A stretch of 63,288 nt of DNA, counting the filler, from Reclinomonas americana ATCC 50394 (lineage: Eukaryota): the NCBI GenBank assembly GCA_048213135.1. It is 7 parts of 7 records of this genome, joined end to end, with 100 filler letters (N's around TTAATTAATTAA, not from the genome) between each part and the next. Parts side by side here need not be neighbours in the genome. Positions count along the whole stretch, not along the records: positions 19,055 to 46,906 come from AFZH01018702.1; 6 more parts are not named here. One strand, written 5' to 3'. Shown in pieces: positions 9,800 to 50,957 of the stretch. A program made the position numbers and the translations under genes. The notes below the pieces were generated by a model that did not search any database, was not told where the DNA came from, and worked only from the letters and a program-made list of their open reading frames with translations. Each line of letters starts with the position of its first letter. Positions within the stretch are counted from its first letter, which is position 1.

Positions 9800-10786
9800 T
9801 CAGGCCACGGCCTTGAGCGGCTCGGGCGCATAGGCCCATGGCAGGAGCTCGTCGAGTTGGCTCTGCGGATGTCCGGCGACGATGCGGGCGATGACGTCGG
9901 AGAGGTAGACTTGCGGGTCGACGCCGTTGAGCTTGGCGGTTTCGACGAGCGAGGCGATGACGGCCCAGTGCTCGCCGCCGCCGTCGCTTCCCGCGAACAG
10001 TGCATTCTTGCGATTGAGGGCGATCGGTCTTATGGCGCGCTCGACGACGTTGGAGTCGATTTCGACACGGCCGTCGTCGAGGAAGCGGCTGAGGCCAGCC
10101 CATCGCGAGAGGGCGTAGCGGATGGCCTCGGCGAGTTTGCTCTTCTGGCTGACGAGGGCGAGCTTCGCCTTCAACCACGGTTCGAGGGCATCGACGATCG
10201 CGCGGCTTCTCGCCTGGCGGCTGTCGCGGCGCTCCTCGACGGAGCGGCCACGGATTTCGCCCTCGATACGATAAAGCTCGGCGATGCGCGCGAGTGCTTC
10301 CGTGGCGATCGGCGCGGGACCACCCTGCGCGAGGTCATAGAACTTGCGCCGGACATGGCTCCAGCAGAACGCCAGGCTCACGGCGTTGCGGTCGGCCAGG
10401 ACCTTGTAGCCCGCGAAGCCATCGACCTGCAGCGTGCCGACGAAGCCCTGAAGATGGCGGACCACCTGCTCGGCCTTGCGGTCGGGCGCGTAGAGATAGG
10501 CGACGCCGGGCGGATCGACGCCGCCCCAGGGCCGCTCGTCGCGGGCGTAGGCGAAGAGCTGGCCGGTCTTGGTCCGGCCGCGACCCGGGTCGAGCACCGG
10601 CGCCGTGGTCTCGTCGGCGAAGAGTTTTGTCGATGCCTTCAGACGCTCGAACAGCCGAGCATGGACGGGCCGTAGCAGGAAAGCCGCCTTGCCGACCCAG
10701 TCGGCCAAGGTCGAGCGATCCAGGTTGACGCCCTGCCGGGCGTAGATCTGCGCCTGGCGGTACAACGGCAGATGATCGGCGTATTT
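9800..10786 (-). CDS. tnpC: IS66-family transposase TnpC, 3' part (5' lost in assembly gap)
   Basis: HLPLYRQ, LFADETT, LQVDG, CWSHVRRKF, EIDSNVVERAIRP, SLVETAKLNGVDP, DELLPW. Confidence 0.95.
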   Translation of the reverse strand, partial: KYADHLPLYRQAQIYARQGVNLDRSTLADWVGKAAFLLRPVHARLFERLKASTKLFADETTAPVLDPGRGRTKTGQLFAYARDERPWGGVDPPGVAYLYAPDRKAEQVVRHLQGFVGTLQVDGFAGYKVLADRNAVSLAFCWSHVRRKFYDLAQGGPAPIATEALARIAELYRIEGEIRGRSVEERRDSRQARSRAIVDALEPWLKAKLALVSQKSKLAEAIRYALSRWAGLSRFLDDGRVEIDSNVVERAIRPIALNRKNALFAGSDGGGEHWAVIASLVETAKLNGVDPQVYLSDVIARIVAGHPQSQLDELLPWAYAPEPLKAVA

Positions 10787-22866: not shown

Positions 22867-23614
22867 AAAGAACAGGCGTATCATTTCGTCACAACTCGTG
22901 GACGTGCCCATTGCGGCAGGGAGGCTAGCTGTGGCTAGACCAGGTCGGGGCTATCCCGTCTTATTCATGAGGGCACTGGATCGAGAGTGGCGAGCGTAGC
23001 GTAAAGCACTGATTTGGCTTAGGGATTGGGTGCTGACGCCAACATCCTTCACCTGATCGAGCCCGCCACGCCCGCCATGTCCGATGCTACAGCGCTGCCG
23101 TTCGCGTTTCCATCCGTCCGGGGCAAGAAGCTCACAGCCGCCTTCGACGGCGGACGCCTGACCTCGGACGGTGGTGTCTTGCTGCTTTCACAGGCCGCCC
23201 GGCGGTTGCGCATTGCCGAAAAGCTCGCCGCCGTGATCCCCGATCGGCGCGATCCGAGCCGGGTCTTGCACCCTCTGCCCGAGATCCTGCTCGCCCGTAT
23301 CCTGGCCATCGCCTGCGGCTACGAGGATGCCGACGACCTCGATCACCTGCGCGCCGATCCCGCCTTCAAGCTCGCCTGCGGCCGCCTGCCCGAGAGCGGC
23401 CTCGAGCTGATGAGCCAGCCCACCGTCTCACGGCTGGAGAACACGCCCGGCCTGCGCGATCTGATCCGGCTCGGACGGGTGATGGTCGAGCTGTATTGCG
23501 CCAGCTGTGCACGGCGGTGAGAAAACCATCCAGTGAAGCGCCTGCGTTTGTGCGGGCGCGGGCGGCGTAAAAGTCGTCCACTGGATAGGCTGATCCCTTT
23601 CGGGGTCGGCGGGG

Positions 23615-25114
23615 ATGTTCGCTGTGGAGGTCTACGCGGCGGTTCGCGATTTCGTTTTCAATCAGAAGCAGAGCCGACGGGAAGCGGCTCGCGTGTTCGG
23701 GCTGAGCCGCGAAACGATCGCCAAGATGTGCCGGTTCTCGATCCCTCCGGGCTACACGCGCACGAAGCCGGTCGAGAAGCCGAAGCTCGGTCCGCTGCTG
23801 CCGGTGATTGAGGCGATCCTGGACGGAGACCGGGCGTCTCCGGTGAAGCAGCGCCATACGGCGAAGCGGATCTTCGAGCGGCTGCGGGACGAGCACGGCT
23901 TTGCCGGCGGCTACACGGTGGTGAAGGACCATGTGCGGCTCTGCCGGGCGCGGGGCCGCGAGACCTTCGTTCCGCTGGCCCATCCGCCCGGTCACGCCCA
24001 GGTGGATTTTGGCGAGGCGCTGGCGGTGATCGGCGGCGTGCGGCAGAAGATCCACTTCTTCTGCCTGGACCTGCCACAGTCGGATGCCTGCTTCGTGAAG
24101 GCGTATCCGCGCGAGACGACGGAAGCGTTCCTGGACGGTCACGTCTCGGCTTTTGGCTTCTTCGGCGGTGTGCCGCTGTCGATCCTCTATGACAACACCC
24201 GCATTGCGGTGGCGAAGATCTGCGGCGATGGCCGGCGCGAGCGGACGCGGGCCTTCACCGAGCTGGTGAGCCACTATCTGTTCCGGGATCGGTTCGGGCG
24301 CCCGGGCAAAGGTAACGACAAGGGCAAGGTCGAGGGGCTGGTGAAGTATGCCCGCTCGAACTTCATGACGCCGATCCCTTTGGCGGCGAGCTTCGCCGAA
24401 CTGAACGCGATGTTGGCCGAGCGCTGCCGCCGCCGACAGGACGAGCGGGCCGGCCGGCATGGCCAGACGATCGGGGAACGGCTTGTTGCCGATCTCGGGG
24501 TCTTGCGCCCTTTGCCGGCAGTGCCGCTGGAGCCGTGCGAGAAGCGTGGTGCGCGGGTCTCGTCGACGGCGCTGGTCCGATATCGGTCGAACGACTACTC
24601 GGTCCCGACGGACTATGGCTTCCAGGACGTGGTGGTGAAGGGCTTCGTCGAGGAGGTCGTGATCCTGTGCCGGGGCGAGGAGATTGCCCGCCATCCCCGC
24701 AATTACGGGACGGGCGTGTTCGTCTCCGATCCGCTGCACTATCTGGCGCTAATCGAGGAGAAGCCGAACGCCCTCGACCAGGCGGCGGCCTTGCAGGGCT
24801 GGGACCTGCCCGAGGCCTTCCAGCACCTGCGCCATCTCCTGGAAGCGCGCATGGGCAATCGCGGCAAGCGCGAGTTCATCCAGGTGCTGCGGCTGATGGA
24901 GGCCCTGCCGCGCGACATCGTGAGCTTCGCCGTCGGCGAGGCGATCCATCTCGGTGCGATCGGCTTCGATGCGGTGAAGCTGATCGCGCTGGCGCGGCTG
25001 GAACGGCGCCCACCGCGCCTCGACCTCGCGGCCTATCCGCATCTGCCGAGAACGGCGGTGAAGACGACGTCGGCCTCCGATTATGCCGTGCTCCTGCCGG
25101 GAGCGGCGGCATGA
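23615..25114 (+). CDS. istA: IS21 transposase IstA
   Basis: AQVDFG, ILYDN, KGKVE form the DDE motifs. Confidence 0.96.
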   Translation: MFAVEVYAAVRDFVFNQKQSRREAARVFGLSRETIAKMCRFSIPPGYTRTKPVEKPKLGPLLPVIEAILDGDRASPVKQRHTAKRIFERLRDEHGFAGGYTVVKDHVRLCRARGRETFVPLAHPPGHAQVDFGEALAVIGGVRQKIHFFCLDLPQSDACFVKAYPRETTEAFLDGHVSAFGFFGGVPLSILYDNTRIAVAKICGDGRRERTRAFTELVSHYLFRDRFGRPGKGNDKGKVEGLVKYARSNFMTPIPLAASFAELNAMLAERCRRRQDERAGRHGQTIGERLVADLGVLRPLPAVPLEPCEKRGARVSSTALVRYRSNDYSVPTDYGFQDVVVKGFVEEVVILCRGEEIARHPRNYGTGVFVSDPLHYLALIEEKPNALDQAAALQGWDLPEAFQHLRHLLEARMGNRGKREFIQVLRLMEALPRDIVSFAVGEAIHLGAIGFDAVKLIALARLERRPPRLDLAAYPHLPRTAVKTTSASDYAVLLPGAAA

Positions 25115-25965
25115 CAAAAGAGACGATGCCGGCGGGCACGACCGCGGGAACGCCGCAGGTTCTGCTGGCGCACCACCTCAAGCAACTGAAGCTGCCAACC
25201 GTCCTGCGCGAGTACGACAAGGTGGCACGGGAATGCTCCCGCGACGGCGTCGATCATCCCCGCTACCTGCTACGGTTGGTCGAGCTCGAACTGATCGACC
25301 GGGAGCGGCGCACGGTCGAGCGGCGGATCCGGGCGGCGCGCTTCCCAGCGGTGAAGAGCTTCGACACCTTCGACTTCACGGCGATCCCGAGCCTGAACAA
25401 GATGCTCGTGCTGGAGCTGGCGCGCTGCGGCTACATCCTGCGCCGGGAGAACATCATCGCGCTCGGCAACAGCGGCACCGGCAAGACCCATGTCGCCCTC
25501 GCGCTCGGGCTGGCCGCTTGCCAGAAGGGCTTCTCCGTCGCCTTCACGACGGCGGCTTCGCTGGTCAACCAGCTTCTCGAGGCCCGCGACGAGAAGCGCC
25601 TGCTCCGGCTCCAGCGCGAGTTGCAGGCGGTCAAGCTGCTGATCGTCGACGAGCTTGGTTATGTGCCGCTGTCACCGACCGGCGCCGAGCTCCTGTTCGA
25701 GGTCTTCTCGCAGCGCTACGAGCGCGGCTCGACCATCGTCACCTCGAACCTGCCCTTCGAGGACTGGACGTCCGTCCTGGGATCGGAACGGCTGACCGGC
25801 GCGCTGCTCGACCGCCTGACCCACCACGTCAGCATCCTCGCCATGAACGGCGACAGCTACCGCCTCAGGCAATCCGCCGGTCGCCGGCGTGCCGCCGCCG
25901 CGGCGGAGCAAAACCAGGCCACCCCAGACGAAGCCGATCCCGAAACCGGGGAGATCATCGCCTGA
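25111..25965 (+). CDS. istB: IS21 helper ATPase IstB
   Basis: [33 protein letters not shown] overlap with istA. Confidence 0.96.
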   Translation: MTKETMPAGTTAGTPQVLLAHHLKQLKLPTVLREYDKVARECSRDGVDHPRYLLRLVELELIDRERRTVERRIRAARFPAVKSFDTFDFTAIPSLNKMLVLELARCGYILRRENIIALGNSGTGKTHVALALGLAACQKGFSVAFTTAASLVNQLLEARDEKRLLRLQRELQAVKLLIVDELGYVPLSPTGAELLFEVFSQRYERGSTIVTSNLPFEDWTSVLGSERLTGALLDRLTHHVSILAMNGDSYRLRQSAGRRRAAAAAEQNQATPDEADPETGEIIA

Positions 25966-25981
25966 TCAACACCGGCAGTGC

Positions 25982-26019
25982 GATATGGCAAGGGCCCCGA
26001 TCGGGGCCCTTGCCATATC
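25982..26019. repeat. Perfect 38-bp palindrome in the IS21 right end
   Basis: GATATGGCAAGGGCCCCGA-TCGGGGCCCTTGCCATATC with no spacer. Confidence 0.95.
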
Positions 26020-27540
26020 CGCCGCTCCCCAACGCCAGTGGCCTGCTTTTACTCCGCCACGATGGCCTGGAATCCGACCGCCGTTGACAGCCAGCTATGC
26101 CGCGCCGCCCAAAGCCGTCACCCTGGATATCGACGACACCTGCGACGTGGTGCATGGCCACCAGCAGCTCTCGCTGTTCAACGGCCATTACGATGAACGC
26201 TGCTTTCTACCGATCCACGTCTACGACACCGCCACCAGCCGTCCCGTCGCGGTCATCCTGCGGCCGGGCAAGACGCCCTCTGGACACGAGGTGTGCGGCC
26301 ATCTGCGCCGCCTGGTCCGCGCCATCCGCCGCCACTGGCCGGACACCGCGATCACGCTGCGTGGCGATGGCCATTACGGTCGGCCCGAGGTCATGGATTG
26401 GTGCGAGGACAACGCCATCGCCTACGTCTTCGGCCTGACCGGCACCAAGGTATTGGCCGCCAAGGTCGAGCCGACCGCCGATCCTATCCGGGTCGAGCGG
26501 GCGATCGGCAACAAGGACGTGGTGCGCGGCTTTGCCGAGGCCACCCACGCGGCCAAGTCCTGGCGGCAGAAGCGCCGCGTCGTCGCCCGCATCGAGGCCA
26601 CCCGGCTCGGGCTCGACATCCGCTACGTGGTCACCAACATCGCGACCGGCACGCCGGAATGGCTCTATGCCGACCTCTATTGTGCCCGAGGGCAAGCCGA
26701 GAACCTGATCAAGTTGCACAAGAGCCAACTCGCCTCCGACCGCACCTCCTGCCGGAGCCCCGCCGCCAACCAGATGCGGCTTGTGCTGCACACTGCCGCC
26801 TATTGGCTGATGCTCACATGGCGCGACGCCATCCCGAAAACCCACGGCCTCGCCAAGGCCGAGTTCGCGACGATCCGCCTGCGCCTGCTCAAGCTCGGAG
26901 CCCGCATCCGCGAGACCGCTGCTCGTGTCCGCCTCGCCTTCGCCGCTGCCTGCCCCGAGGCTGATCTGTTGCGCCTTCTCGCCGGTGCACTCGCCCCGGC
27001 TCCTGCCTGAACGACGGGGCCAAGACGCCCCGAAAATCCGATCCCGTCCCTCTCGCCATCGACCAAACAATCCAGATTAGCCAACGACGCACGACCAATC
27101 AGGACGGCGCTCGACAAGGCACGCTCGCAGCCAAAAACCTTGGCCGTCCACAGACGTCGTGAATAAGACGGGCTATATCGCCAACTGCATCGTCGCGAAT
27201 GTTGCTGATGTCGAAAGCCTGCAGAGCAAAAAATCCTAAGATCGCCGCCCGCTTGCGATCGGCGCGGACAGCTGGCTCGATGGGCCTACATGCGCTCGCT
27301 ATGAAACGTTATTGCTTGCAGCTCCTCCGCCGTTTGATGCGCTATATGCTAACTAAAATACAGAGAAATCAGCCCAGTATGACACGAAAGTCGCGATTCC
27401 CGCACGCGAATTCCCGCCATGAACTGTAGATTTCGACAGTTTTTGTGAAACGTTTTCTTGACTCATTGAGCGCAAGGCGAGATTGTGGATGGGAAGTGAC
27501 GCTCTGCGTCCTCCAGGAATTAGACTTCACAGGAGAGGTA

Positions 27541-42691: not shown

Positions 42692-43269
42692 ATGGGAACT
42701 CCTTATGGTTCGCCGAGCATCAATTACTGGATGCTTGGCCGCCGCGCTCCCGGTTGGACAGAACTCTACAATTGAGGAATGCGCCAACCACCGATGGTGG
42801 ACCTCCGACACGACTTGGTCGACTCGACTAGTTGGTCGGAGGGATGACATTCAGCACTTGCCTCATGTTTCGCTATCCGCAACGTCGTTTTATATGTTCT
42901 CAATCGGGAATGGAAGTCAAGCGGCATTTCGAACGACGGCTTGAGCGCCCGATTTGACCAATTTCGCAGGCGATTTCTGGCTAGTAATGAAAAATGTAGC
43001 AACTTATGACCGGGAACTTGCAATATATTCATAGACAACAAGAACAAATGTTAGTGATGTTGTCTAACTATGGTTCATTAGATCATCTAGATTTGTAAAT
43101 AATATAGGCATGTAATTTGCGCATTGTATATTATTTAATCTCTATATATTTCATCAAGCCAGTTCGTAGTGAATCATCCCGTACGCCAGCTATTGACAAA
43201 CGGTTAAAGTTCTAGCGGAATAGGTGTCCGAAACGACGTTGCGGATTGCGCAACGAGCAGGGAGCACGG

Positions 43270-43659
43270 ATGATGGACGAGAACAACGCTGTTCCGCAAT
43301 ACAACTGGGAATCGATTCCTGAGCGCGAATTGCGCAAAGGCGTGACACAGAAGGTATTCAGGGGGGATGATGTGGTTGTTGGCCAGACGACGTTATGGCC
43401 AGGTATGCAAACTGCTCCACACAGCCACCCGTGGGAGCAGATTTTTATGATCCTCAAAGGGCGGGTTACGCTTCATGTGGGAAATCAGACATACGATTGC
43501 CCTGCAGGTACCGTCATCAGAATTCCGCCAAACGTTGAGCATTGGGCTGATGGTCCTCGTCCAGAGGACGGACCCGCGCTCAACCTCGATATCTGGACCC
43601 CTCTTCGTCCGGACTACGCGAAGTTTACTGATTACCAAACGGACAAATTCAGTAAGTAG
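43270..43659 (+). CDS. Cupin domain protein
   Basis: PHSHPWEQIFMILKG...IPPNVEH. Confidence 0.9.
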   Translation: MMDENNAVPQYNWESIPERELRKGVTQKVFRGDDVVVGQTTLWPGMQTAPHSHPWEQIFMILKGRVTLHVGNQTYDCPAGTVIRIPPNVEHWADGPRPEDGPALNLDIWTPLRPDYAKFTDYQTDKFSK

Positions 43660-43859
43660 AAGTACCGGCTGTGAGTTACGACCCTGGCCTCTTCTGGCAG
43701 GCCAGGGTCTTCCCGGGCGTCGTTGTGTCCGCAGGAGTGGATATCCGCGCGAGAGCCAGGAGATGGTCTTCGATGCCCATGACCGGGCCTTCGCCTTCTT
43801 CAAGGGCGCCTGCACGCGCGGCATCTACGACAATCTATGGACGCCTCCCGCTGCAAGGT

Positions 43860-44085
43860 AGTTCTGTGGGCAACGTCGGCTTGGGTTGCATGAATCTATC
43901 CGGCCTATCGCTGGAGCGATCATGCTCCTGGCCTTGATGGGAGTCCGCTGCTTCTCGCCTCATAACATGATCGGCCTCGACGGCCTTGTCGTAGATCAGG
44001 CTTGGAAGCGGCGATCCTTGCCGTTGCACCATCAGTCTCCACCTCGCATTCACCGCCGCATCAGCGGCGATCCGGTTAGCCAACT
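43860..44085 (-). ncRNA. Predicted bridge RNA / seekRNA (ends approximate)
   Basis: Target guides 43986-43996 and 43964-43970 match the flanks; donor guides 43934-43942 and 43893-43899 match the element ends; each pair brackets a GGCC/GGCC stem. Confidence 0.88.
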
Positions 44086-44088
44086 TGA

Positions 44089-45093
44089 TTAGGCAGGTAT
44101 GTAGCTCTCCTTCCTCGCCATCAGCACCCAGGCGATCCGCGCGGTCTTGTTGGCGAGTGCGACTAGCGCCTTGTTGAATCCAGCTCGCGCCACGATGCCC
44201 TTCAGCCAAACCGACCGCCGATCATCGCGGCCGGCCAATCGGCTGATGACGGCACGGGCGCCATGGATCAGTTGGCGCCGCAGATAATGATTAGCGCGGC
44301 GACCGATGCCGCCGAGTCGGGGCTTGCCGCCGGTCGTGTATTGGCGAGGAACAAGACCGATCCATGCGGCGAGTTCGCGACCCGAGCGGAAGTGGCGGCC
44401 ATCATCGACAGCGGCAACAAGCGCAGTGGCGATCACTGGCCCTACACCGGGCAACGCAGTGAGCCGGCGACAGGCTTCGCGCTCACGGCAGAGCGTCACG
44501 AGCTTTGCATCGAGCCTAGAAAGCCTGGCTTCAACGTCGTGCAATTGGTCGAGAAGGTCTGTGAACAGCTCACACGCAAGTTCAGAAAGACCTGCGTCGG
44601 CGATCATCGCGGGCGCCCGCTCGCGGAACCGCCACGACCCCTTCGGTAGCACGACGCCGTATTCAGCGAGCAGACCTCGCGCGTGATTGATGAGTGAGGT
44701 GCGCTGGACGACAAGCCGCTCGCGCACCCGATGCAGTGACTGCAAGTCCTGCTGCTCGGTCGTCTTCACCGGCACGAAGCGCATGGTGGGCCGCGATGCA
44801 GCTTCATAAATTGCCTCGGCGTCGACTGCGTCGTTTTTCGAACCGCGCACGAACGCCTTCACGAACCGTGGGTTGATGAGCATCACCCGCCTTCCATCCG
44901 CCTCGAACCGCCGGCCCCAGTGGTGCGCGCTCGCGCAGGCTTCCATCGCAACGACGGCGGGGGAAAGCTCGGCCACAGCGGCATCGAGCTTAGCGCGGCC
45001 GACCTTACGCGAGATCACCACACCTTCCGCATCGATCGCGTGCAGGTGAAACGACTGTTTGCCAAGATCGATGGCCAACAACTGAGTTGTCAT
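44089..45093 (-). CDS. IS110-family DEDD recombinase/transposase
   Basis: AIDLGK, MEAC, KNDAVDA (DEDD RuvC-like); LPGVGP, FRSGRELAAWIGLVPRQYTTGGK, LIHGARA, VALANKTARIAW; RBS AGGAGG. Confidence 0.96.
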   Translation of the reverse strand: MTTQLLAIDLGKQSFHLHAIDAEGVVISRKVGRAKLDAAVAELSPAVVAMEACASAHHWGRRFEADGRRVMLINPRFVKAFVRGSKNDAVDAEAIYEAASRPTMRFVPVKTTEQQDLQSLHRVRERLVVQRTSLINHARGLLAEYGVVLPKGSWRFRERAPAMIADAGLSELACELFTDLLDQLHDVEARLSRLDAKLVTLCREREACRRLTALPGVGPVIATALVAAVDDGRHFRSGRELAAWIGLVPRQYTTGGKPRLGGIGRRANHYLRRQLIHGARAVISRLAGRDDRRSVWLKGIVARAGFNKALVALANKTARIAWVLMARKESYIPA

Positions 45094-46062
45094 CGCTTTC
45101 CTCCTTCTGGTGAGGCACCCAAGGTGGCCGGAAAGCGGGAGGCGTCCATCCCATAACATGAAGACGGCGGTGGAGACGATCTTCGTCGGCAAGGAGCGGG
45201 CCTATAACCGCCGCTTCCAGCAGATGTGCAGCCATTACCTGGTCGATCCCGTCGCCTGTACGCCGGCCTCGGGCTGGGAGAAGGGGCAGGTCGAGAACCA
45301 GGTCGGGCTCGTGCGCGAGCGCTTCTTCGCTCCCCGCCTGCGGGTCAAGAACTACGACGAGTTGAACGCCTGGCTGCTGGATCAGGTGCTCCGTTATGCC
45401 AAGGCACACCGCCATCCCGAACAGCGTGACCGCACGATCTGGGAGATGTTCGAAGCCGAACGGGCAAGCCTCGTGCCTTACGCCGGGCGGTTCGATGGCT
45501 TCCATGCACTGCCGGCCTCGGTGTCGAAGACCTGTCTCGTGCGCTTCGACAACAACAAGTACTCGGTCATCGCGAGCGCGGTCGGGCGTCCCGTCGAGAT
45601 CCGCGCCTATGCCGATCGGATCGAGCTGCGCCAGGACGGGCGTATCGTCGGCGAGCATCCCCGCTGCTATGGCCGCGACCAGACCATCTACGATCCCTGG
45701 CACTATGTCCCGGTACTGGCTCGCAAGCCGGGAGCCCTGCGTAACGGCGCGCCCTTCAAGGATTGGGTCCTGCCCGGTGCGATCGACCGGGTCCGACGCA
45801 AGCTTGCTGCCGTTCAAGACGGCGATCGGCAGATGGTCGAGATCCTCGCCGCGGTGCTCAGCGACGGGTTACCTGCCGTCGAAGCTGCCTGCGCGGACGC
45901 CCTTCGGCAGGGCGTCCACTCCGCCGACGTGATCATCAACATCCTGGCCCGGCGCCGGGAGCCGGCGGCAGCGATCACGATCATGACGCCCGATGCCTTG
46001 CGGCTGCGCCATGAGCCCGCCGCCGATTGTGCCCGCTACGACAGCCTCAGGAGAGCCGTGTG

Positions 46063-46791
46063 ATGGAACGCTCGGAGATTCTCGCCACCATGGGCGAGCT
46101 CAAGCTCTATGGCATGAAGGCCGCCTTCGACGAGATCATCGCCACAGCGGTGAAGCGCCAGCACGAGCCGCAGCGCGTCGTCGGCGATCTGCTCGCCGCC
46201 GAGATCGCCGAGAAGCAGGCCCGTTCGATCAAGTATCAGATCACCATCGCCAAGCTGCCGCTCGCCAAGGATGTCGCCGACTTCGCCTTTGACGGCACCC
46301 CGATCAACGAGACCCTCGTTCATGATCTCGCCGGCGGCAACTTCCTGGCGCACCAGCGCAACGTTGTCCTCGTCGGCGGGACTGGGACCGGCAAGACCCA
46401 TCTCGCCATCGCGATCGCCCGGGCCTGCATCCGTGCCGGTGCTCGCGGCCGCTTCTTCAACGTCGTCGATCTCGTCAACAAGCTCGAGGCCGAAGCCCGC
46501 GCCGGCCGCCAGGGCCGCATGGCCGATTATCTCGCCCGCATGGACTTCATCGTCCTCGACGAACTTGGCTATCTGCCCTTCGCACAGTCCGGAGGACAAC
46601 TGCTCTTCCACCTGGTCAGCAGGCTCTACGAGCAGAGCTCCGTCATCGTCACCACGAACCTCGCCTTCGGCGAATGGCCGTCCGTCTTCGGCGACGCCAA
46701 GATGACCACCGCGCTCCTCGACCGGCTCACCCATCACTGCGACATCGTCGAAACCGGCAACGAGAGCTGGCGCTTCAAGAACAGGCTCTGA
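46063..46791 (+). CDS. istB: IS21 helper ATPase IstB
   Basis: [31 protein letters not shown]. Confidence 0.96.
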
Positions 46792-47006
46792 GCCTCCCCG
46801 AGACCCAACGATCCGGAGCCGGCGCGGCTGCGCAATCCAGACCAGCTCCGCCGCGCCGCCTCCTCGCCGCGAAGCATACTCAAGGGGTCAACATTGGACG
46901 CCAATCNNNNNNNNNNNNNNNNNNNNNNNNNNNNNNNNNNNNNNNNNNNNTTAATTAATTAANNNNNNNNNNNNNNNNNNNNNNNNNNNNNNNNNNNNNN
47001 NNNNNN

Positions 47007-47437
47007 AACTCCCGCTCGTAGCCATTGGCGACCATGCCACCGATCAGCTTCTCGCCGAATTTGCTGACCCCGCCGGTGTGCTTGAAAGTCGCCATGGCGC
47101 GGCGAAGCTGGTCGGCTTCGCCAGGCGTGAAGCCGGCGCATTCGATGGCGACCCGCATCGCCTGTTCCTGGAACAGCGGCACGCCGAGCGTTTTGCCGAG
47201 CACGGCTTCGAGCTCGGGCTTGGGATAGACGACGTCCTCCTTGCCTTCACGCCGGCGCAGATAGGGATGCACCATGTCGCCCTGGATCGGGCCCGGCCGC
47301 ACGATCGCGACCTCGATGACAAGATCGTAGAAGGTGCGAGGCTTAATCCGCGGGAGCATCGCCATCTGCGCACGGCTCTCGATCTGGAATGTGCCAAGCG
47401 TGTCGGCCCTGCAGATCATCGCGTAGGTGCGCGGATC
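47007..47437 (-). pseudogene. dnaE2: Error-prone DNA polymerase DnaE2 (ImuC) internal fragment
   Basis: [55 protein letters not shown]; the 5' part is replaced by the KAP gene and the 3' part runs into the gap. Confidence 0.92.
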
Positions 47438-48303
47438 TCCGGAGCGAGGACTTCGTGGAACAGATTGAGCACATGCACCCCCAGCTCCTCGCTTGGTTCA
47501 CCCGTCAAACCAAAGAGCTGCACCTGGAGATGTCGCTGCAGGTCGGCAGGAGCGGCTGAAGGCAGCTCAAATGACGCCTGCACGATCTTTTCGAGATAAT
47601 GCGGCCCTTCGCTCGGGAACCGCTCTTGCACAACCTTCTCCGCCAAGCGGCGATCGAAGGCCAGCACATAGATCACATTGGGAAGGCGTCCGACGGATTT
47701 GACCAGCCGAAACATCGCGAGCGCCTCATCGGGCGCGAGCCGATCGATGTCGTCGATCAGGATGACGAAGCGCTTCTTTTGCTCGGCAAGTGCATCGGCG
47801 AGTTCGCGATGCAGCTTCTCGACGCTGTCGCCATCGGAAATCAGGCCGCTCAGCCACTGCATAGTGCCGGATGCAATTGCACCAGCGCCGCCGGCGCCGA
47901 GCGCGTCAGCAGTCGGGGCAACCACGCTTCCCGCTTTCAGGAGCCGCGCGCCAAGCTTTGGAAGCAATTGCTTGGCTTTGGCTGCAAGACTGGGATCAAG
48001 CGCCGCGTTCAGCTCGCGGAAGAATGCCAAAACCAGCGCCTCCTCCCCACGAAACCACCAGGGATTGAAGGAAACGACCGCCAGCTCGTCAGCGGCCACC
48101 GCATCCGCCAGGCTCAGCCTCAACAGATTCATCGCGCTGCTTTTGCCAGAGCCCCAAGGTCCGTTCAGACCGATCACAACGCCTTGCGGCGTCTTCATCT
48201 GACGGACGCTGCGGCCCAGCGCCTGCACAAATGGCATGATGCCGAACAGATCCTGCTCGGGGTTGCTGATTGGCAGATCGCCGTAATCCAGCTCGAGTGT
48301 CAT
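47416..48303 (-). CDS. KAP-family P-loop NTPase, probably C-terminally truncated
   Basis: [42 protein letters not shown]; its stop lies inside dnaE2-derived sequence. Confidence 0.9.
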
Positions 48304-50169: not shown

Positions 50170-50957
50170 TTACAGGATTCCCCAAGCGCGATAGCTGCCC
50201 CTCCCCGTCAACTCCCGCACTCCGAGCTCGGCAATTAGATTGAGCGCACCGCGGGGCGTCACATCGGCAGCCTTCGCCACCATGGCAGCCGAAATAATTG
50301 GGCGAGAAAGGATCAGCTCGATCGTGGCCGGAAGGCTGCTGGTCGACCGGCGACCGCGGAGCTTGCGCTCCATGAGCTGGCGAGCCTGATCCAGCCGGGC
50401 GATCTCCTTCATCCCCGATTCCGCCGTCAGGCACATCGCATCAAGGGAGGCGAGCAAACGCTTTGTCCGATCATGAGAACGCCGCCGTTCGCGAGTTACC
50501 GCTTTCAGGCCGAGGTTGAGTGCTGGCAGGTGCGAAACGACTTTGCCTCGCGCCCGCAAACAGGCGGCGGCCAGCTGCCCGCCCAGCCAATGCTGCCGCT
50601 GCAACGGTTGAATGGTTTCCCACGCATCGAGGAGGAGCGCGGCCGACAGCACAGGCGGCAAATTAGCTGTATCCCTCCTGACTTCATGCCATTCGGACAG
50701 CCGCTCCTGCTCGTCCCACCCCGCATCGCGGATAACGAGCTCGCCGACGACGAGCGACAACTTCTCAGAAGCCACCGTCGGCGCCGGCGTGGCGACCCCC
50801 TCGAGAGCACGCCGCGAGCGTTCGAGCACCGCATCGATGTGTGCGAGCTCGCGAGAGAGCGGATCATTGTCTTCATCGGGAGGCTCGTCATCCCCTCCTC
50901 TCCCCTCTCATCAGCAACGCCTGGTGCTTTCGATTGGCTGACTGTCCGCCGTCAGCG
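50170..50957 (-). CDS. DUF1612/HTH (RHE_PE00001-like) protein, 3' part
   Basis: WDEQERL.EW, LPPVL.AA...DAW, RRSTSSLP, ELTGRGSYRAWGIL; family common on rhizobial plasmids; 5' part in the gap. Confidence 0.8.

Follow-up and report, generated by a model that had tools for sequence, protein, structure and literature searches.

The stretch of DNA analysed here, called the window throughout, comprises 63,288 nucleotides of the assembly GCA_048213135.1 of Reclinomonas americana ATCC 50394, in which parts of seven records are joined end to end with filler letters. Within the part derived from AFZH01018702.1 (positions 19,055 to 46,906) lies a compact insertion sequence (IS) carrying a single recombinase gene on the minus strand, followed by a long non-coding region, and inserted into the transposase gene of an IS21-family element. 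The original prediction, which was made from the sequence alone, had described it as an IS1111-type element of about 1.3 kb with a readable guide RNA; its limits and every string quoted for it were confirmed by direct reading (Table 1). The junctions were read as ...GGCATCTACGACAA/TCTATGG on the left and ...CATCCCATAA/CATGAAG on the right (here and below, a slash within a site marks the junction). The dinucleotide core had been given as AA, which is correct for the window strand, but it reads TT in the element's own orientation. The subterminal inverted repeats (sTIRs) formed a perfect pair of 16 bp, and the recombinase gene was preceded by 63 nt and followed by 255 nt of non-coding DNA. The 236 nt first announced for this downstream non-coding region (NCR) correspond to the interval between the stop codon and the inverted repeat, and not to the whole region up to the element end. 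Elements of the IS1111 group are described as having sTIRs of 7-17 bp with short terminal extensions (PMC11208160), and their longer NCR as lying downstream of the recombinase gene (PMC11187229, section 6). As the sTIRs, the position of the gene and the long downstream NCR are defining features of this group, the element fits group IS1111 of family IS110.

Table 1. Coordinates of the element, of its predicted RNA domain and of its insertion site (window positions)
Feature	Position	Strand	Remarks
Whole IS1111-group element	43834..45156	(-)	1323 bp, counting one AA (TT) core copy at 45155-45156
Recombinase gene	44089..45093	(-)	334 aa + stop; only long intact gene of the element
Left-end sTIR	45134..45149	(-)	ATGGACGCCTCCCGCT in element orientation; 5 nt inward of core
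Right-end sTIR	43837..43852	(-)	AGCGGGAGGCGTCCAT; 3 nt inward of core
Predicted bridge/seekRNA domain	43853..44047	(-)	195 nt, P1 5' strand to P1 3' strand
Outer stem P1	44041-44047 / 43853-43859	(-)	GCGAGGT/ACCTTGC, 7 bp
Closing helix P2	44020-44031 / 43867-43880	(-)	helix named in the original prediction
Target-binding arm, stems P3-P6	43940..44017	(-)	78 nt
Target guide 1	43986..43996	(-)	ATCTACGACAA; identical to 43823-43833, 11/11
Target guide 2	43964..43970	(-)	TCATGTT; reverse complement of 45155-45161, 7/7
Donor guide A	43934..43942	(-)	TCCCATCAA, read TCCCAT-C-AA; matches 8 of 9
Second hairpin, stems P7-P8	between donor guides A and B	(-)	flanked by 43934-43942 and 43893-43899
Donor guide B	43893..43899	(-)	ATAGATT; last 5 nt of right end + core, 7/7
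Remnant of IS21-family istA, 5' part	43742..43833	(+)	ISMdi27 alignment; blastx aa 167-197
Target arm in left flank	43823..43833	(+)	core AA at 43832-43833; istA codons I-Y-D-N
Second AA core copy and target arm CATGA	45155..45161	(+)	istA codons (N)-M-K
Remaining host IS21	45157..46791	(+)	istA 3' part (to 46063) and istB (46027-46791)

The recombinase was assigned to the IS110/IS1111 type, as had been claimed, on the basis of three profiles: its N-terminal RuvC-like DEDD domain matched PF01548 (DEDD_Tnp_IS110, E = 5.8e-18), its C-terminal Tnp domain matched PF02371 (Transposase_20, E = 4.5e-22), and the NCBIfam equivalog NF033542, 'IS110 family RNA-guided transposase', scored 323.4 bits for a cut-off of 140. 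The residues D9, E51, D88 and D91, whose counterparts in IS621 are D11/E60/D102/D105 (PMC11208158), were invariant in 66/66 full-length relatives. The Thr-Gly pair T254-G255, located within the motif GLVPRQYTTGG, agreed with the IS1111 consensus GL-P----S(t)G (PMC11187229) and was aligned, by sequence, with the catalytic S241-G242 of IS621; position 254 was occupied by T in 61 of the 66 relatives and by S in the five others. Sequence alignment to solved structures extended over the C-terminal domain only (ISCro4 9T56, IS621 8WT6; E ~1e-7), with E = 8e-7 for that of IS621.

Both target guides were re-read directly and matched the element flanks over their whole length (11/11 on the left and 7/7 on the right), as originally stated. 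By chance, the 255 nt of the NCR would be expected to provide, on two strands, such an 11-mer about 1e-4 times and such a 7-mer about 0.03 times. In element orientation, the target reads TCATG-TT-GTCGTAGAT. Over the core and the right flank, guide 1 complements the top strand, while guide 2 has the top-strand sense of the left flank and core and pairs with the bottom strand. The match to the top strand therefore comes 5' of that to the bottom strand, which is the order reported for IS1111 seekRNAs (PMC11187229, section 9). The second loop, laid out as TCCCATCAA...GGCC / GGCC-GG-ATAGATT, matched the element's own ends in the way that had been proposed: donor guide B over its full length, and donor guide A through TCCCAT, which complements the outermost 6 nt of the left end, and AA, complementary to the core, with one extra C in between. 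This extra C was invariant in 35 aligned sequences, in which C111, A112, T113 and C114 were all invariant, and GGATAGATT at donor guide B was conserved in the same alignment. The extra C recalls the discontiguous donor pairing described by Durrant et al., in which a donor guide of 9 nt pairs with only 7 bases of the donor (PMC11208160). A handshake-guide rule taken from the IS621 model, which would tie the bases of guide 1 nearest the core to those of donor guide A, was tried and rejected, the two tails agreeing only in some groups (AA/AA, AT/AT, AG/AG).

The insertion site could be reconstructed from the host element. The two flanks are pieces of one 5'-truncated IS21-family istA, split between the codons for IYDN and MKTAV; its 3' part covered positions 185-292 of 294 of profile NF033546 and matched PF22483, and the following istB matched IstB_IS21 at 253.6 bits. 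ISMdi27 from Methylorubrum extorquens showed about 80% DNA identity to this host. Across the junction, its uninterrupted istA reads GGGATCTACGACAACATGAAGACC, whereas the window reads ...ATCTACGACAA / element / CATGAAGAC..., and the AA core found once in ISMdi27 is present twice around the element (43832-43833 and 45155-45156). In addition, a contig from a public soil RNA library, originating from a related uninterrupted IS21, joined 43831 to 45155 and skipped 1323 bases. The empty site that had been reconstructed from the window alone is thus real, since it was seen in an uninterrupted istA and in this contig. Within IstA, the Pfam rve (integrase core) match extends over residues 129-235, and the insertion falls inside it, at 197/198. 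The programmed target is the DNA encoding a conserved motif, IYDN/MK, of the integrase-core domain of IS21-family IstA, which means that the element landed in, and split, the transposase gene of another transposon. No empty copy of the 20-nt site was found elsewhere in the window when up to 3 mismatches were allowed, and the best matches to the 16-nt site elsewhere in the window reached 12/16.

Relatives were used to examine whether guides and flanks change together. Genome contigs were scanned for related elements; of 510 candidate stretches, 301 were confirmed as relatives, and the best 80 of these, with 44-87% protein identity, were retained. Both ends were recognised by the end-finding pattern in 44 of the 81 sequences (80 loci and the window), and all of these but one (43/44) displayed a readable target loop. 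The RNA scaffold and the donor loop were nearly constant among them, and the two target guides varied jointly with the flanks. For the 39 loci with both flanks complete, 19 guide haplotypes were distinguished and compared at non-core positions only; this haplotype test replaced a single-linkage clustering of guides, which had lumped distinct targets into 4 classes. Of the 266 positions compared, 230 agreed between a guide and its own flank. When the flanks were reassigned among haplotypes, 131 positions agreed on average and 191 at most, and none of 100000 shuffles reached the observed value. The original prediction had looked to flanks that do not covary with the guides for its refutation; in this test, the guides tracked the flanks. 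Among 31 distinct guide/flank combinations, the match per position was 0.68-0.94 for positions 2-10 of guide 1 and 0.77-1.0 for guide 2. One copy on a Sphingopyxis plasmid associated a variant guide, ATTTTCGACAA, with a flank carrying the same variant (11/11).

Loci that did not serve to build the covariance model described below were examined in the same way. The best guide-1 match lay directly after the right end in 23/30 of them, and the best guide-2 match abutted the left end in 21/29. Many single matches were weak, shuffled guides equalling them in 0.4% to 100% of trials, and at these loci the signal is carried by the placement of the matches and not by their individual strength. In distant relatives whose left end is ATGGAA, the donor guide reads TTCCAT, which shows that the donor loop covaries too. 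Fourteen distant relatives (44-51% identity; L053-L056, L061, L062, L065, L066, L070, L073 and L075-L078) displayed a G as last base of guide 2, against an A at the left junction; this could be due to a G-T wobble with the bottom strand or to a core differing between the two junctions. In L020 and L021, the junctions read TC on the right and TT on the left.

The domain surrounding the guides displayed the characteristics of a structured RNA. The helix originally proposed to close it (P2) was present, but the outer stem P1, which closes the domain and is better conserved, had been overlooked. In the target-binding arm, guides 1 and 2 occupy an internal loop and flank a GGCC-GTCGA-GGCC hairpin; the scaffold, GCTTC-CAA-GCCT-G-[guide]-GGCC-GTCGA-GGCC-GA-[guide]-ATG-AGGC-GA-GAAGC, was found exactly as first quoted. 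The size and content of this 78-nt arm match the short seekRNAs of relatives, which are reported as 82-96 nt long with both target matches inside (PMC11187229; Siddiquee 2024). The minimum free energy fold of the RNA domain was -107.7 kcal/mol (z = -4.13), and one of 200 shuffled sequences folded equally well.

The comparison across homologues that had been suggested as a check showed that the stems covary. When a structure of nine helices and 44 pairs was applied to the 35-sequence alignment, 89.8% of the cells were paired, against 30-48% in controls with slid 3' partners, a comparison in which the structure is favoured by its derivation from the window sequence. Compensatory changes on both sides were seen in 15 of the 44 pairs, and covariation scored 0.134, which none of 500 shuffles attained (shuffle mean 0.103). 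A covariance model (R1) built on 151 alignment positions gave one match in the window, at the expected place (43875-44025, 169.5 bits), and no orphan copy of the RNA was detected there. Full-length matches were found 3' of the recombinase gene at 32 further loci, together with a 3'-cut match in L019 and low-scoring matches lacking the target arm in L036 and L067; these matches reached relatives of 44-51% protein identity, at 20-66 bits. A similarity to Hrs13 (Rfam), at E = 0.23 and inside the coding sequence, was taken as chance.

Given its anatomy, the matches of its guides to flanks and ends, the empty site, the covariation of guides and stems, and the catalytic residues, all of which were observed in this analysis, the element at 43834-45156 is very probably an intact IS of the IS1111 group that chooses its site by means of an RNA it encodes. 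The reading as an RNA-guided recombinase was thus supported by the covariation of guides with flanks and of stems, and by homology as far as the mechanism is concerned. According to this mechanism, the 195-nt domain 3' of the recombinase gene would be the bridge RNA or seekRNA, and the DEDD/Thr-Gly recombinase would bind it, by analogy with IS621, ISEc11 and relatives. The two guides of one internal loop would pair with opposite strands of the target, one over the core and 8-9 nt on its right, the other over the core and 5 nt on its left, while the second loop would provide two guides for the joined ends of the element. The recombinase would then bring the circle junction, ..CCATAGA-TT-ATGGGA.., together with the target described above, strands would be exchanged at the TT core, and the element would end up flanked by one TT on each side. 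Experiments carried out with relatives lead us to infer that the element produces this RNA, that the protein binds it and recombines under its direction, and that a circle is formed as an intermediate.

Several observations weigh against this interpretation. Among the 31 combinations, position 1 of guide 1 matched the flank in only 39%, and the last, core-facing base of the same guide in 58%. The target of 16 nt put forward at first was accordingly too long by about one position: a guide position matched in such a low proportion (0.39) implies a conserved target nearer 15 bp. Locus L016 matched only if a 1-nt insertion in the flank was allowed, and L036 lay in the same IS21 site without possessing a target loop. 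Instead of pairing with the left end, donor guide A can engage its three initial bases in stem P3. A repeat scan of the window detected no second copy of the element, and no family of Rfam 15 matched the NCR, although whether Rfam includes bridge RNAs of the IS1111 type was not checked. Public sequencing runs, the best of which contained 0.06 of the sampled words, brought no support for expression of the RNA; in four aligned runs, contigs fell mostly on the IS21 flanks, with four short stretches inside the recombinase gene and one contig (X1) over 43742-43959, and these data are evidence neither for nor against transcription. Finally, no sigma-70-like promoter or terminator for the RNA was detected by a scan that gave one terminator-like site on the wrong strand, and that we regard as uninformative.

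Two of these points were accompanied by further observations. The core-facing last base of guide 1 was A, T, C or G depending on the lineage, and no rule was found for it. In L036 (positions 1400-1552), the target-binding arm has been deleted (about 64 nt) while the donor loop and both ends have been kept; this natural deletion should be unable to choose a target.

The single copy in the window and the lack of RNA support in public runs would also suit an intact-looking but immobile relic, which would have inherited its RNA domain and its matches from an active ancestor, with nothing being expressed or moving any longer; in addition, the truncation of the host IS21 around 43742 indicates that the region has been rearranged. 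We nevertheless hold this explanation to be improbable, since the open reading frame (ORF) has retained all catalytic residues, the 16-bp inverted repeats are perfect, and guides and flanks agree at every position, in contrast to the 1-3 mismatches seen in many relatives. An open ORF, perfect repeats and mismatch-free guides point to a recent insertion without decay.

Recognition of the target by the protein, or by DNA-DNA pairing of the NCR, the matching segments acting as signals at the DNA level, appears far less probable still. Covariation of sequences cannot by itself separate an RNA guide from single-stranded DNA, and transcripts found no support in the runs or in the promoter scan, but the compensatory changes preserve nine helices around the guides, as expected of a folded RNA. 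Moreover, in four IS1111 members and one IS110 member, an RNA derived from the NCR co-purified with the transposase, was essential and could be reprogrammed (PMC11187229), and IS621 structures show RNA-DNA pairing (PMC11208158). That the guide/flank matches are due to chance, or are the leftover of a target fragment captured into the element, has only the shortness of the 7-nt match in its favour and is scarcely credible, as two matches in opposite orientations occupy fixed places in a conserved scaffold and change along with the flanks in relatives at five other kinds of site.

To class the flanks at all 44 loci whose ends could be read, blastx was run against six reference pieces, themselves identified by Pfam/NCBIfam; this replaced a choice based on the longest flank ORF, which gave wrong frames in GC-rich DNA. 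Thirty-seven of the 44 were found in other mobile elements, each with matching guides. IS21 istA, at the IYDN/MK codons (residues 197/198 in the ISMdi27 reference), hosted 20 elements including that of the window, and IS3-family orfA, between the ribosome-binding site and the ATG, hosted 12. Two elements lay in IS3 orfB, in the codons for ..GDAYD/NAM.E.., where Pfam rve ends and rve_3 begins, two in IS5-family transposases near the C-terminus (..Y/NM..), and one in a group II intron reverse transcriptase (..LYD/KISRN..; TIGR04416, E = 3e-33, partial). No class was assigned to the seven remaining loci (L016, L021, L033, L034, L040, L047 and L065), for some of which the flanks were too short; L065, at 44% protein identity, was also the most distant of the 44.

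Each target class carries its own guide pair. The host IstA proteins of the 20 loci were 40-85% identical to the ISMdi27 reference, which indicates independent insertions into different IS21 elements. The IS21 specificity is not peculiar to the present copy, its site being common to 19 other loci found in this analysis. Several target sites share TA(C/T)GACAA or TACAACATG, so that few guide mutations would suffice for a jump from one to another. Comparison of these sites inclines us, by a small margin, towards the view that this clade may parasitise other mobile elements and hop between them by rewriting about a dozen guide bases. If this proved general, RNA-guided ISs would land in those codons of rival transposons that are under the strongest constraint, sites that would be safe for the host, present in many copies and horizontally travelling, and the insertion would disable the rival. 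From an ecological point of view, the transposase genes of competing transposons, and also a group II intron, serve this lineage as insertion sites. The close relatives also form a natural reprogramming series, in which the same protein, ends and RNA scaffold are combined with guide pairs for five kinds of site; such a series provides reprogrammed guides that evolution has tested for one scaffold, and shows which guide positions tolerate mismatches. In the literature searched, no IS1111-type elements targeting coding motifs of IS21, IS3 or IS5, or group II introns, were found, a search whose scope excluded most subscription journals, ISfinder notes and the target logos (>300 IS) of PMC11187229.

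Two of the unclassed cases deserve a description of their own. L033 and L034 are near-identical insertions, bearing guides of the IS3-orfA type, in the region of the ribosome-binding site and ATG of an unrelated gene; their guides matched 10/11 and 7/7, with AT at the right junction and TT at the left, and they probably represent a natural off-target event with a core mismatch. In L021 (positions 966-1127), the 13 initial codons of an IS3 orfA are followed directly by a fragment resembling the C-terminal domain of an IS110-family recombinase (..AAWLGLTPRQNSSGGK..), which suggests nested or rearranged elements.

Bridge RNAs have been predicted in the right end of 93% of the IS1111 elements of ISfinder (PMC11208160; Durrant 2024), and elements of families IS110/IS1111 guided by bridge RNAs or seekRNAs are described by Durrant 2024 and Siddiquee 2024. 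The kind of element is therefore already known, as the original prediction had recognised, and the present copy is a new representative of a known class. With guided recombination established for IS110/IS1111 and such RNAs predicted for most catalogued IS1111 elements, a single addition contributes little; its value is that of a clean and readable example, in which the guides are perfect, the empty site is verified and the enzyme is compact (334 aa), with a predicted Thr nucleophile. Among 5.8 billion protein clusters, the nearest was 87% identical to the recombinase, and the nearest plasmid and genome records showed 86-87% protein identity. A new name is attributed by ISfinder if no known element displays at least about 95% protein identity. 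With its nearest relatives in the records searched at 86-87%, the element would probably earn a new IS name.

These nearest relatives are unnamed IS110-family elements from pSFD01 of Sphingopyxis sp. FD7, from a Sphingobium yanoikuyae plasmid and from contigs L001-L010. They share the ends of the present element and its site in IS21 istA, the Sphingopyxis copy lying beside istB, but they are different ISs by the usual naming rule, and their host IS21 elements are 40-60% identical to the ISMdi27 reference. The closest relative bearing an ISfinder name in the records searched was ISAtu1 from the Agrobacterium Ti plasmid (70-73% protein and about 73% DNA identity), which clusters with IS1111A in the supplementary table of Durrant et al. 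2024 (PMC11208160). Its left end, ATGGGATGGACGCCTCCC, is similar, and the RNA model matched 3' of its gene at 139 bits, but its left junction is CT instead of TT and its identity is well below the level of a same IS.

Among IS1111 members with a studied seekRNA, known targets include REP sequences and attC sites. ISEc11, ISPa11, ISKpn4 and ISPst6, the last two of which share one target, resemble the present element in their descriptions by Siddiquee et al. 2024 (PMC11187229) through a downstream NCR, sTIRs, a top-strand match placed first, a short structured RNA and the motif GL-P----S/TG; they have been tested at the bench, whereas the present element is known from its sequence alone and is likened to them by description. 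With IS621, as presented by Durrant et al. 2024 and Hiraizumi et al. 2024 (PDB 8WT6), it shares a bispecific RNA with two loops, a dinucleotide core, a composite active site made of DEDD and Ser/Thr-Gly, and the discontiguous pairing of one donor guide. IS621 differs in belonging to the IS110 group, with its RNA 5' of the gene and a reversed guide order, and by inverted repeats of 2-3 bp, a CT core and a Ser nucleophile. Precedents for the targeting of mobile elements within the IS1111 group are mentioned in PMC11208160 and PMC11208158, namely IS1383, whose target is the IS1384 inverted repeats, and IS4321/IS5075, which insert into repeats of Tn21. Those targets appear to be non-coding terminal repeats, while the target here is a conserved coding motif in a transposase gene.

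Regarding the host IS21, homology begins around 43742, everything upstream of IstA residue ~167 being gone, and contigs of IS21 relatives start aligning at 43742-43748. The host is cut off just after an unrelated cupin-domain gene (43246-43659), and about 500 bp of istA are missing together with the left end. A 220-nt public contig (run X1, record 1; window 43742-43959; 17 differences and 5 gaps) spans the boundary between the IS21 flank and the right end of a related element, which indicates that the same IS21 site was occupied by a relative in another sample. The window also contains a second, intact IS21 istA (499 aa, 23615-25111), in an element that sits in a split IS1380-family transposase gene (pieces at 23026-23517 and 25889-27007). 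The homologous site of this second IS21, CTCTATGACAA/CACCC, was unoccupied and fitted the guides of the element only 9/11 and 4/7, and the guides of relative L012 fitted the subtype to which this second IS21 belongs.

No drug-resistance gene was seen in the window. It is rich in mobile and accessory genes, such as those at 37-1593, 9803-10765, 46955-48303 and 50173-50829, and carries an ISL3 transposase, an IS66 transposase, a protein of the RHE_PE00001 family, and a DNA polymerase III alpha finger-domain fragment adjoining a KAP P-loop NTPase. These genes were interspersed with genes for CoA-transferase, hydantoinase and ABC transporters.

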